A DNA stretch of 8,487 nt from a virus (Duplodnaviria > Heunggongvirae > Uroviricota > Caudoviricetes). Below the pieces are notes generated by a model. That model searched no databases. It worked only from the letters and a program-made list of their open reading frames with translations, and was not told where the DNA came from. The stretch covers positions 1 through 8,487 of IMG/VR virus record IMGVR_UViG_2675903650_000007. One strand, written 5' to 3'. Every line of letters begins with the position of its first letter. The stretch's first letter is position 1. This document shows, in pieces, positions 5,133-8,285 of the stretch. The translations under genes and the position numbers were made by a program.

Positions 5133-5558
5133 TTAGTGCATCACCACAGCATTCCCTGCCGGGCCGCCGCGATTTATCTGGTCATACAAAACGACCGCTG
5201 ACGCAACAAAATCGTCGACATCCTTCACCAGCCGATCCCGCCGTTCGACAATCTCCCGGTAATACTCAGAACTGTGACTGCGCATACGGGCCACCAGCAA
5301 AGGCGGCATCGCCTTTTCGATCGCCGGTAACAGCGCCTGAATTTTTTCAACAGCATCAGGCGTATCCTTCTCCACCCAGCGGAAAATTTTCTGGGTATTA
5401 CGGGCCAGGGCTTCCGGATGGCTGTCGTCGTACAGTTCCGGGAACGTCATCCCAAGTTCGAAATAAGTCCGGGCTATTTCAGCTGCAGGCACTTTCTCAC
5501 CATCAGGATATGCCCAGGCATTCATCGCCATGCGGATGTGTTCATGTTTGATTTTCAT
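5133..5558 (-). CDS. YdaT-like protein (Rac-prophage YdaT family) in the cII position (141 aa)
   Basis: Minus-strand ORF immediately downstream of the cro-like gene, start overlapping its stop (ATGA at 5555-5558). The N-terminus MKIKHEHI.. matches my recollection of E. coli Rac YdaT. It does not resemble lambda CII. Confidence 0.65.
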   Translation of the reverse strand: MKIKHEHIRMAMNAWAYPDGEKVPAAEIARTYFELGMTFPELYDDSHPEALARNTQKIFRWVEKDTPDAVEKIQALLPAIEKAMPPLLVARMRSHSSEYYREIVERRDRLVKDVDDFVASAVVLYDQINRGGPAGNAVVMH

Positions 5559-5818
5559 GAATCAACTCCCAGCGCGGGTTGTGTGTTAGCCTGATAGTCA
5601 ACAGGTATGCCATCGGTTGGGTTGGGGTAAGTACTGCTATCAATCTCGTGCGGGGTCACTACCCACCCTGTTGCTTCACACCAGCGTAAAACTTTCCCCC
5701 CCGTAAGTTTCGCCCGTCCAGTAATAACATGGCTTACCATCCCTTGGGTTACCCCAACAATTTCAGCAAAATCTTTCTGGGTTATACGGGAATGATGCAA
5801 ATATTCTCCAAGATTCAT
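5555..5818 (-). CDS. Cro-like / YdaS-family HTH regulator (87 aa)
   Basis: First gene of the minus-strand operon, divergent from the repressor gene. HTH-like segment ITQKDFAEIVGVTQGMVSHVITGRAKLT. RBS GAGGTG 4 nt before the ATG at 5816-5818. Confidence 0.7.
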   Translation of the reverse strand: MNLGEYLHHSRITQKDFAEIVGVTQGMVSHVITGRAKLTGGKVLRWCEATGWVVTPHEIDSSTYPNPTDGIPVDYQANTQPALGVDS

Positions 5819-5847: not shown

Positions 5848-5890
5848 ATTAATAGCATTGTTATTTTTAAAAGTAAATAGCACTGCTATT
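5848..5890. promoter_or_regulatory. OR-like operator pair and divergent promoter region (PR-like on minus strand)
   Basis: Two 15-bp palindromes 25 bp apart: AATAGCATTGTTATT (5851-5865) and AATAGCACTGCTATT (5876-5890). On the minus strand a near-consensus -10 TATTAAT (plus coordinates 5848-5854) and -35 TTTACT (5872-5877) with a 17-bp spacer overlap the two operators and point into the cro-like gene. A plus-strand repressor promoter is expected between 5885 and 5920 but cannot be placed confidently. Confidence 0.65.
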
Positions 5891-5925
5891 TCAAAGAGAT
5901 TAATAATCTTATTAGAATTGAAGGT

Positions 5926-6426
5926 ATGAAAAGAAAACCCCTGTCAGAGATCGACCTGCAAGCCGCCCAGAGACTGAAAGAAATCTGGACGACGAAAAAA
6001 ACTCAACTTGGGTTAACCCAAGAGCGTGCGGCAGAAATTCTGGGTTTTTCGACACAAGGGGCAGTAAGCCATTATCTAAATGGTCAGACACCTTTAAATC
6101 TAGAGGCTGTTATCAAGTTCGCTGGGTTGCTACAAGTTCCGCCTGAGTCAATTAGACCAGATATGGCAGACTTGTTACGAATTGTAAGGATGTACCCCCA
6201 AGAACTGCAGCAGGATAATGTTGTCGCTTTACCCGCAGAGATGGAACAATCGGAAAACGAACTTCCGTTTAATATAGAACCTATAGAGCGAGATTTGATC
6301 CAGACGTTCAGGGCTTTCCCAAAAGAAGACAAAGAGAAAATGCTTAAGGAAATGAAGGAGAAAAAAGAATCAATTGAAGAAACCGTTGCGCGGTGGCTAG
6401 AGGCGCAAAAAGGTCTTCGCGCCTAA
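5926..6426 (+). CDS. Prophage repressor, XRE-family HTH, no S24 peptidase domain (DicA/RacR/PaaR2-like; 166 aa)
   Basis: Divergent from the cro-like gene across an operator-containing intergenic region. HTH motif LTQERAAEILGFSTQGAVSHYLNGQ. The C-terminus is Lys/Glu-rich helical and lacks a LexA/CI-type autocleavage domain. Followed after 17 nt by the antitoxin gene, so the three genes are probably co-transcribed. Confidence 0.8.
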   Translation: MKRKPLSEIDLQAAQRLKEIWTTKKTQLGLTQERAAEILGFSTQGAVSHYLNGQTPLNLEAVIKFAGLLQVPPESIRPDMADLLRIVRMYPQELQQDNVVALPAEMEQSENELPFNIEPIERDLIQTFRAFPKEDKEKMLKEMKEKKESIEETVARWLEAQKGLRA

Positions 6427-6443
6427 TCTGAGGAGGTTAGAAC

Positions 6444-6635
6444 ATGAGTACAGTCCTTTCCCCGATAATTTCAGAATTTGAAACAATCGAACAAGAAAAC
6501 AGCTATAACGAATGGTTACGCACCAAAGTGGCAGCAAGCCTCGCAGACCCCCGTCCTGCAATTCCGCATGACGAAGTAATGGCTGAAATGGAAAACCTTA
6601 TTGCGCAAATAGCTTCGACGAACAGGAGTGAGTAA
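6444..6635 (+). CDS. Small antitoxin (PaaA2-like) of a ParE-type toxin-antitoxin pair (63 aa)
   Basis: Strong RBS GAGGAGG 6 nt upstream of the ATG. Small acidic protein (..SEFETIEQENSYNEWLR..) whose stop overlaps the toxin start (TAATG at 6633-6637). The sequence resembles my recollection of PaaA2 from E. coli O157 prophages. Confidence 0.75.
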   Translation: MSTVLSPIISEFETIEQENSYNEWLRTKVAASLADPRPAIPHDEVMAEMENLIAQIASTNRSE

Positions 6636-6925
6636 TGCTGCCCATTTTATGGCTACCTTCTGCGCGTGATGATTTGCGTCAGATCGTAGCCTATATTGCC
6701 AAGGAAAACCCTCCCGCTGCACGTAGACTAAAAATACGCATTGAAACATCAGTTTTGTCACTTACTGAACACCCTTACCTGTATCCACCAAGCGAAAGAG
6801 CTCTAGGCCTTCGTGAGATAGTGACCCATCCTAACTACATAATACTTTACCGAGTAACAGCATCTAACATCGAGATCGTAAATGTAGTTCACTCACGAAG
6901 GCAGTATCCAAACAAAAGCTGTTAA
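6635..6925 (+). CDS. parE: ParE/RelE-superfamily toxin (ParE-like; 96 aa)
   Basis: Size and motif pattern typical of ParE toxins (LP-LW..A..DL..I..YIA.-NP.AA..L...I......L...P.-G......L-LRE.V-...YI--YRV....IEI-.V-HSRR). Translationally coupled to the preceding antitoxin gene. Confidence 0.8.
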   Translation: MLPILWLPSARDDLRQIVAYIAKENPPAARRLKIRIETSVLSLTEHPYLYPPSERALGLREIVTHPNYIILYRVTASNIEIVNVVHSRRQYPNKSC

Positions 6926-6939
6926 TCATTCCTACCAAC

Positions 6940-6964
6940 AACCACCTTCGGGTGGTTTTTTTTT
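6940..6964 (+). terminator. Rho-independent terminator of the repressor-antitoxin-toxin operon
   Basis: Perfect hairpin AACCACC-TTCG-GGTGGTT (stem 6940-6946 / 6951-6957, GNRA-like loop) followed by a T-run through 6964, 15 nt after the toxin stop codon. Confidence 0.8.
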
Positions 6965-6980
6965 CTTACCTCCAAAAAAC

Positions 6981-7022
6981 AATAGCATTACTATTTACAG
7001 AATAAAATAGCAGTGCTATTGT
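6981..7022 (+). promoter_or_regulatory. OL-like operator pair with PL-like promoter
   Basis: Second pair of the same 15-bp palindrome, again 25 bp apart: AATAGCATTACTATT (6981-6995) and AATAGCAGTGCTATT (7006-7020). Candidate -35 TTTACA (6994-6999) and -10 TATTGT (7017-7022) with a 17-bp spacer overlap both operators and point rightward. Confidence 0.6.
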
Positions 7023-7199
7023 TTATTCATCACCCACCCTCCCCACAGAACGCAGGGCAATACTTCGAGTTACCAGGCAGTGGTCAGGGGGTAAGTAGCC
7101 AGCCCGAGGCGTAAGAACATGACGGCAGGGTTCAACTTTAATAACTATGCAGCAGGTTTTTGTTCCGCTACCCCGGCGTTAAGGGGAAATGAGGTCAGC

Positions 7200-7352
7200 A
7201 TGGATACTATCGATCTTGGCAACAGCGAATCTCTGGTATGTGGCGTGTTCCCCAACCAGGACGGTACGTTTACCGCGATGACGTATACCAGAAGCAAAAC
7301 GTTTAAAACTGAAGCTGGCGCGCGTCGCTGGTTAACCAGAAACACTGACTGA
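7200..7352 (+). CDS. YdaF/YdfA-like small prophage protein (50 aa)
   Basis: RBS GAGG 5 nt before the ATG at 7200. MDTIDLGNSESLVCGVFPNQDGTFTAMTYTRSKTFKTEAGARRWLTRNTD resembles the ~51-aa first gene of the Rac/Qin PL-type operons as I recall it. The ORF track's longer version from ATG 7119 has no SD. Confidence 0.6.
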   Translation: MDTIDLGNSESLVCGVFPNQDGTFTAMTYTRSKTFKTEAGARRWLTRNTD

Positions 7353-8227: not shown

Positions 8228-8285
8228 TTTCTGGTGACATTTGGCGGTATCAGTTTTACTCCGTGACTGCTCTGCCGCCCTTTTT
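8228..8285 (+). ncRNA. dicF: DicF-like small regulatory RNA
   Basis: tttctggtgacatttggcggtatcagttttactccgtgactgctctgccgcccttttt matches the ~53-nt DicF sRNA of the E. coli Qin prophage almost base for base, from memory with about one difference, including the GC-rich 3' stem and U-tract. Confidence 0.8.

Follow-up and report, generated by a model that had tools for sequence, protein, structure and literature searches.

A PaaA-ParE-family toxin-antitoxin pair behind a lambda-CI-type repressor gene in a lambdoid prophage immunity region

Genes and control elements of the locus

The window analysed here is a stretch of 8,487 nucleotides of viral DNA (Caudoviricetes; IMG/VR record IMGVR_UViG_2675903650_000007), and the locus of interest lies at positions 5,848 to 7,022. 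It contains three closely packed genes, for a repressor, an antitoxin and a toxin, and this cassette is embedded in a lambdoid immunity region, opposite two genes that occupy the ydaS and ydaT positions. The features are collected in Table 1.

Table 1. Genes and control elements in and around the repressor-antitoxin-toxin cassette (window positions).
Feature	Position	Strand	Details
YdaT-family CII-like activator gene	5133-5558	-	141 aa
Putative YdaT operator	5548-5565	.	OM-type inverted repeat TTGATTTTCATGAATCAA, at the cro-like/ydaT gene junction
Cro-like HTH regulator gene, YdaS position	5555-5818	-	87 aa
PR, inferred, TTTACT/17/TATTAA	5877-5849 (-35 5877-5872, -10 5854-5849)	-	read by eye; mirror image
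OR-like operator pair	5851-5865 + 5876-5890	.	motif statistics; overlaps putative PR, abuts PRM -35
PRM-like promoter TTCAAA/17/TAGAAT	5890-5918	+	promoter scan
Repressor gene	5926-6426	+	166 aa; lambda-CI-type N-terminal domain, disordered linker, PaaR-type C-terminal helical tail
PaaA-family antitoxin gene	6444-6635	+	63 aa
ParE-family toxin gene	6635-6925	+	96 aa
Intrinsic terminator closing the repressor-antitoxin-toxin unit	6940-6966	+	hairpin, then T-run
OL-like operator pair	6981-6995 + 7006-7020	+	overlaps PL-like promoter
PL-like promoter TTTACA/17/TATTGT with TGn	6994-7022	+	promoter scan; aimed at ydfA, DicF, dicB

The initial annotation had described three open reading frames packed into one transcription unit, ended by a terminator and bracketed by two operator pairs, and all of these elements are seen in the sequence. 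The repressor gene ends with TAA (6424-6426), and the 17-nt gap that separates it from the antitoxin gene contains the Shine-Dalgarno sequence GAGGAGG, 7 nt upstream of the ATG at 6444. The antitoxin stop and the toxin start have one base in common, GAGTAATGCTG (a TAATG overlap). After the toxin gene, the terminator scan finds a hairpin at 6940-6957, with a 7-bp stem containing 4 G-C pairs and a 4-nt loop, followed by nine T. The number of terminator-like sites in the scan (three in total, compared to 2.2 in shuffles) is not in excess, and this site is convincing because of its position, 15 nt past the toxin stop. No + strand promoter was found between 5919 and 6993 in the promoter scan. The gap, the overlap, the one terminator and the lack of an internal + promoter fit a predicted single operon.

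The operators are defined by the motif AATAGCAnTrnTATT (the AATAGCAnTGCTATT operators), which occurs at four sites only in the whole window. This amounts to 8 strand matches, compared to 0.03 expected, and 8 matches were reached in 0 of 200 shuffles. The spacing within each pair is 25 bp, start to start, and the OR-like and OL-like pairs are mutual inverted copies (78% over 40 nt). There are two operators per side, as compared to three in lambda, and a search allowing up to 2 mismatches did not find a third operator overlapping PRM. Negative autoregulation of the lambda kind is therefore not evident.

The PRM-like and PL-like promoters both overlap operators, and PL points away from the operon. 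The assignment of PR was made by eye, as its -10 fails the scan rule (the last -10 base being T). For both PR and PL, the TGn extended -10 is part of the proximal operator half-site TGCTATT. Promoter-like matches overall are at the shuffle expectation, and what speaks for these promoters is that they lie within the operators, and not how many there are. The -10 of PRM ends 7 nt upstream of the repressor ATG. The same geometry is kept in two diverged relatives discussed below (L009 and L004), while the intervening bases differ (gaaggt, ggatgt and gagacc). The geometry and its recurrence suggest that the repressor mRNA may be leaderless, a property that is experimentally known for lambda cI and for paaR2, in the latter case by 5' RACE (PMC8630535).

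On the other strand, the cro-like gene is divergent from the repressor gene and has the ribosome-binding site GAGGTG; its product matches Pfam HTH_3 (E 4.9e-6) and PHROG 35 (E 3.7e-16). The YdaT-family protein matches Pfam YdaT_toxin (E 7.8e-10) and PHROG 163, the CII-like activators (E 1.3e-46). The inverted repeat at the junction of the two genes is an exact copy of the published TTGATTN6AATCAA (PMC9986795), in the same position as in prophage CP-933P of E. coli O157:H7. Beyond ydaT, O-like and DnaC-like replication genes are found.

With 99.99% identity, the window matches a prophage of E. coli DETEC-S792. That prophage lies in ydfJ (the Qin site) and measures about 52 kb, and a few pseudogenes are present in its accessory regions. 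The annotation gives intact genes for terminase, portal, capsid, tail, lysis, replication, int and xis. From its annotated gene content, the host element looks like a complete lambdoid prophage and not obviously cryptic, unlike CP-933P, which is cryptic.

The toxin-antitoxin pair and the repressor

The three-gene locus paaR2-paaA2-parE2 of CP-933P / Sp12 was reportedly described by Hallez in 2010, and it is the subject of a study by Jurenas in 2021 (PMC8630535). We recovered the true PaaR2 locus via phage Evi (L003), whose ParE does not differ from the solved ParE2 and whose regulator starts with MQKKE as published. The first match in E. coli EDL933 (L002) was considered as the PaaR2 locus and rejected. 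From a neighbouring ECs1072-family gene we infer that this second EDL933 copy is the CP-933M homologue mentioned in PMC8630535.

The 63-aa antitoxin matches a single Pfam family, PaaA2 (E 2.9e-22), and its residues 4-56 match the solved PaaA2 chain (PDB 3zbe; phmmer E 1.7e-22). The 96-aa toxin matches Pfam ParE_toxin (E 4e-18) and the solved ParE2 chain (PDB 5cw7_B; E 5.7e-35), and the ParE membership put forward in the initial annotation is thereby confirmed. The alignments to PaaA2 and ParE2 agree with the proposed relationship, with identities of 71% for the antitoxin and 64% over 92 aa for the toxin. The pair is nearer to that of L002 (86% and 88%, respectively). These matches assign the 63-aa protein to the PaaA2-family antitoxins and the 96-aa protein to the ParE toxins. 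No DNA-binding domain was detected in the antitoxin in the Pfam search; PaaA2 itself is without a DNA-binding motif (PMC8630535).

Between the window and its relatives, dN/dS is 0.04-0.17 for paaA and 0.04-0.16 for parE, and over all locus pairs it reaches up to 0.31 for paaA; with synonymous sites near saturation these values are rough, yet they are far below 1. This shows strong purifying selection on paaA and parE, which are maintained as working genes. The result bears on the possibility that the pair is an inert passenger, i.e. a selfish insertion that affects neither the prophage nor the host. Such a view would agree with the absence of ParE2 activity in either switch state of CP-933P (PMC8630535) and with the rarity of the cassette in sequenced phages, where a toxin homologue is detectable in 1 of 50,697 records, that of phage Evi. 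The selection on both genes, with synonymous sites close to saturation, argues against it, as do the matches to the cassette in 841 of 5,426 complete E. coli genomes (at least 80% of the cassette in 606 of them; the window-type immunity region together with the cassette in 72) and the plasmid stabilisation shown for the homologue (PMC8630535). A selfish addiction module would, moreover, work by the same mechanism as the one favoured below. We consider an inert passenger to be quite improbable.

The repressor has a Pfam HTH_3 match and is similar to the lambda CI N-terminal domain (1lmb) with a phmmer E of 1.6e-9. AlphaFold models the protein with a mean pLDDT of 76, and in the model a five-helix domain at residues 8-89 is followed by a disordered linker (93-112) and two C-terminal helices (119-129 and 133-165). 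In a Foldseek search, the N-terminal domain superimposes on lambda CI N-terminal-domain chains with TM scores of 0.81-0.93 (target-normalised) and an rmsd of 1.1-1.5 A; the search is informative for this domain only, the two-helix tail being too small to place. The domain is 54% identical to that of the CI repressors of Stx2 phages. These sequence and fold comparisons identify residues 1-90 as a true lambda CI N-terminal domain, which would have its own operators.

The C-terminal part is different. It has no Pfam match to Peptidase_S24, and in the model it consists of two helices, about 50 residues in all. By BLASTP, residues 103-166 align with the L002 regulator (56% over 64 aa, E 1.4e-22) and residues 123-166 with PaaR2 (48% over 44 aa, E 1.3e-14). 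Outside the tail, BLASTP gives no alignment to PaaR2, and the head has no detectable similarity to those of L002 and L003. The suggested correspondence between the repressor and PaaR2 thus stands for the tail and fails for the DNA-binding head. We have also considered the repressor as a PaaR2 orthologue, and this was rejected, since just residues 123-166 align and the head is of the lambda CI type. The tail probably gives oligomerisation, as the monomer model and the octamers formed by PaaR2 (PMC8630535) would suggest.

The missing S24 peptidase domain, by which the repressor would not be RecA-cleavable, raises the question of whether the toxin acts in the lysis-lysogeny switch itself. In that scenario, ParE freed when transcription of the repressor operon drops would damage DNA or alter supercoiling and so reinforce induction, and it is known that overexpression of ParE2 induces the SOS response (PMC8630535). 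However, the SOS-positive fraction is equal in the two CP-933P switch states, each of which also shows transcription of the pair (PMC8630535). For the window locus the scenario would be pure conjecture, and we give it a very small probability.

Relatives of the locus and the position after the repressor gene

The DNA similarity between the window and L002 ends at 5666, inside the cro-like gene, and resumes at 6296, inside the repressor gene. From there the homology runs to 7331, with a lapse across the terminator/OL segment until about 7027. The operators of both L002 and L003 differ from those of the window. A conserved core, consisting of the repressor tail, paaA and parE, is therefore flanked on both sides by immunity-specific DNA. 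At the protein level, the YdaT protein is 84% identical to its counterparts in both L002 (EDL933) and L003 (Evi, CP-933P-type), and the Cro-like protein is just 38% identical to that of L002 and 30% to that of L003.

In a sample of further E. coli matches, the toxin-antitoxin cassette is found behind at least four types of repressor head. These are the window type (the window and L009, 80% identical), the type of the second EDL933 copy (L002 and L010), a diverged relative of the L002 type (L011) and the PaaR2 type (L012). In L013, two regulator genes stand in tandem, and metagenomic relatives of 244 aa combine a window-type head, an L002-type HTH and the same tail.

The operator motif is present with a CI-type head in L009 and in L004 to L006, and a search for it in L002, L003 and L007 gave no matches. 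Spaced operator pairs are located 5' of the repressor gene in both L009 and L004. On the 3' side of the cargo, L004 has a second pair, and L009 has one match within 2 mismatches and a more degenerate copy 25 bp further on. The comparison of these loci shows that the putative operator motif follows the CI-type head.

The genes behind the repressor vary as well. In L004, a HipA_2/DUF3037 pair, which corresponds to the PADLOC candidate PDC-M66 (PDC-M66A/B), stands behind a 244-aa repressor that has the same tail. In L007, a Salmonella relative with a different tail, HigB/HigA come after the repressor. The position after the repressor gene behaves therefore as a cargo slot.

These occupants are relevant to the main rival of an addiction function, namely that the cassette serves mainly in anti-phage exclusion or abortive infection. 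It would then be a functional counterpart of rexAB, made together with the repressor in lysogens and set off when a superinfecting phage enters. The initial annotation had put the pair in the position of rexAB, and this agrees with the literature, which places the CP-933P-type pair in the rexA/rexB slot (PMC8630535, PMC9986795). That the same slot holds a candidate defence pair in L004 and HigB/HigA in L007 also speaks for exclusion. On the other hand, no PADLOC model matches the repressor, the antitoxin or the toxin of the window, and the PaaA2-ParE2 literature consulted reports post-segregational killing and no defence phenotype (PMC8630535). We judge exclusion as the main role to be rather unlikely.

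The L004 arrangement also bears on the tail. The idea that the tail is always linked to paaA-parE was rejected, as the 244-aa relative with the same tail carries HipA_2/DUF3037, and this relative also weakens the case for the tail as the part that docks the complex of toxin and antitoxin. It is more likely that the tail is an assembly domain and not a docking site. A search with the 52-residue tail against 1.84 billion representative proteins gave 10 matches at E <= 0.001; the tail family is therefore narrow, and no broader conclusion is possible from it.

One could go further and propose that the PaaR tail and paaA-parE form a core that persists while the head, Cro, OR and OL are exchanged, the mosaic being the footprint of the pair killing those recombinants that lose it. 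In a stronger version, the tail would be functionally tied to the toxin-antitoxin complex, e.g. by docking, such that the assembly of the repressor senses the state of the pair. For CP-933P, an 'anti-recombination addiction' has been proposed, not demonstrated. We regard this proposal for the window locus as speculative and decidedly unlikely.

Proposed function and comparison with known systems

Overall, the observations are best explained by a lambdoid prophage immunity region with a repressor-linked PaaA-ParE addiction module, and we hold this explanation with good confidence. Addiction is the most likely function by analogy with CP-933P.

In the proposed mechanism, the repressor would be made from a probably leaderless PRM-type transcript that continues through the antitoxin and toxin genes to the single terminator. 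Assembled via its tail, which would provide oligomerisation, the repressor would bind the four operators and shut off both PR (cro-like, ydaT) and PL (ydfA, DicF, dicB). The Cro-like protein and YdaT would be the counterparts of Cro and CII. Because the antitoxin is without a DNA-binding domain, expression of the pair would depend on the phage switch. PaaA would neutralise ParE by wrapping around the toxin. If the operon is lost, the unstable antitoxin would decay and ParE would poison the cell, and the cassette would for this reason act as an addiction module for the immunity region.

The homologies, the layout of the locus, the joint variation of head and operator among the relatives and the purifying selection are seen in the sequences themselves. 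The binding of DNA by the repressor, the leaderless translation, the toxicity, the neutralisation and the addiction are here transferred from the CP-933P homologue. In that system, the paaR2-paaA2-parE2 locus stabilises a mini-F plasmid, post-segregational killing being shown only for this homologue, and PaaA2 is degraded by ClpAP and ClpXP, while the target of ParE2 is not established (PMC8630535). Counting against the addiction function, no toxin activity was seen in either switch state of CP-933P (PMC8630535), and the window toxin shares only 64% identity with ParE2.

The known systems can now be compared with the window. Canonical parDE systems (RK2, Vibrio cholerae) likewise have a ParE-fold toxin neutralised by a small upstream antitoxin. 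Canonical ParD has its own DNA-binding, autoregulating domain, whereas none was detected in the window antitoxin; unlike in canonical parDE, control in the PaaA-type system has passed to a separate phage repressor (PMC8630535).

The cI-rexA-rexB region of lambda resembles the window in its divergent PRM/PR promoters, in a second operator set at a PL-like promoter about 1.1 kb away and in having accessory genes behind the repressor gene, in the window predicted to be co-transcribed with it. The N-terminal domains of the two repressors are homologous (ca 35% identical). The differences are that lambda CI has an S24 C-terminal domain where the window repressor has a 50-residue helical tail, that the cargo is RexAB in lambda and a type II toxin-antitoxin pair in the window, and that the CII role would be filled by a YdaT protein, which is unrelated to lambda CII.

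The locus L002 has the closest toxin-antitoxin pair, with 81.5% DNA identity, and shares the repressor tail described above, but it differs in having another HTH head and other operators (AAAACTGT...ACAGTTTT).

In CP-933P, PaaR2 is the CI analogue, YdaS is Cro and YdaT is CII (PMC8630535, PMC9986795), the analogy being drawn for a PaaR2 that has no sequence similarity to CI. The CP-933P locus has OR and OL/PL sites, and PaaR2 represses PR and PL (PMC8630535). The toxin-antitoxin pair stands in for rexA/rexB (PMC9986795, PMC8630535). The claimed parallel between the window and paaR2-paaA2-parE2 holds, as the two share the three-gene order with its tight junctions, the location between OR and OL, the -10 right next to the start codon of the repressor gene, the Cro-like and YdaT genes in divergent orientation, the placement of the YdaT operator and the ydfA/dicB-type genes after PL. 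They differ in their operators, which are GTTTAGTAA repeats, three or four per side, in the PaaR2 locus as compared to two per side of the window type, and in their repressors, PaaR2 having 123 aa and the window repressor 166 aa, with unrelated DNA-binding domains.

Since the literature already describes the three-gene architecture, where it sits in the immunity region and how it behaves as an addiction system, the main finding is one of confirmation: the window locus adds a heteroimmune representative to the known paaR-paaA-parE family. It departs from the known system mainly in its repressor, in which a true lambda-CI N-terminal domain is combined with a PaaR tail. What is added is comparative, in that one toxin-antitoxin core with its tail occurs behind several unrelated heads, each with its own operators. 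The window copy, with a head truly homologous to lambda CI and in a complete-looking prophage, provides a natural variant for asking whether the pair guards the immunity region against replacement, whether it affects the induction of a RecA-uncleavable repressor and whether it excludes other phages.

The transcript from the PL-like promoter

Downstream of the PL-like promoter (PL), the window carries ydfA and then the DicF small RNA, which scores above the threshold of its Rfam family; DicF stands immediately 5′ of dicB, a gene that starts past the window end. From this position, after PL and before dicB, it follows that the PL-like promoter would drive ydfA, DicF and dicB as a cell-division-inhibition operon of the Qin type.

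The DUF1391 match is restricted to residues 29-75 of the 77-aa ydfA ORF, and RefSeq places the ydfA start at an internal ATG at 7200, giving a product of 50 aa. The leader of about 180 nt between PL and ydfA is also kept in two heteroimmune loci, the second EDL933 copy of the system (L002) and phage Evi (L003). This stretch may serve as a regulatory site, for example a nut-like one.

Further features in the window and in other loci
Feature	Locus	Position	Strand	Remark
ydfA, 77-aa ORF	window	7119-7352	+	DUF1391 (YdfA) match
DicF small RNA	window	8229-8280	+	Rfam RF00039; score 77 bits, gathering threshold 48
Tandem regulator genes	L013	681-1532		E. coli RM10466
Truncated ynfG and start of second element	L001	37821-39513		
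244-aa tandem-HTH repressor and cargo	L004	4787-6360		also L005, L006
Repressor with CI-type head, followed by HigB/HigA-like pair	L007	4612-5339		Salmonella prophage

Atypical regulators, and antirepressor genes beyond the integrase

In L013, two regulator genes lie in tandem 5′ of paaA-parE. A complete PaaR2-like gene is paired with one that resembles the L002 regulator, and the latter has an odd start and overlaps paaA at its 3′ end. This arrangement may be a recombination intermediate. A database protein of 74 aa (P0038) is cro-like, with part of the PaaR tail joined at its C-terminus; the fusion probably arose by a deletion or through faulty assembly of the sequence.

In L001, ynfG is truncated about 10 kb past the prophage integrase, where a second element starts. 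It has Ant-type antirepressor genes, which may be relevant to the induction of a repressor without an S24 domain.

Other cargo behind related repressors

The 244-aa repressors combine a head of the window type with the same PaaR tail, and are followed by HipA_2 and DUF3037 proteins instead of a toxin-antitoxin pair. These proteins match PDC-M66A/B, a candidate defence system in PADLOC, and are flanked on both sides by the operator motif of the window. The L007 repressor has the CI-type head with a different tail; the HigB/HigA-like pair behind it is a further toxin-antitoxin system at the rexAB position, where lambda carries rexA and rexB.
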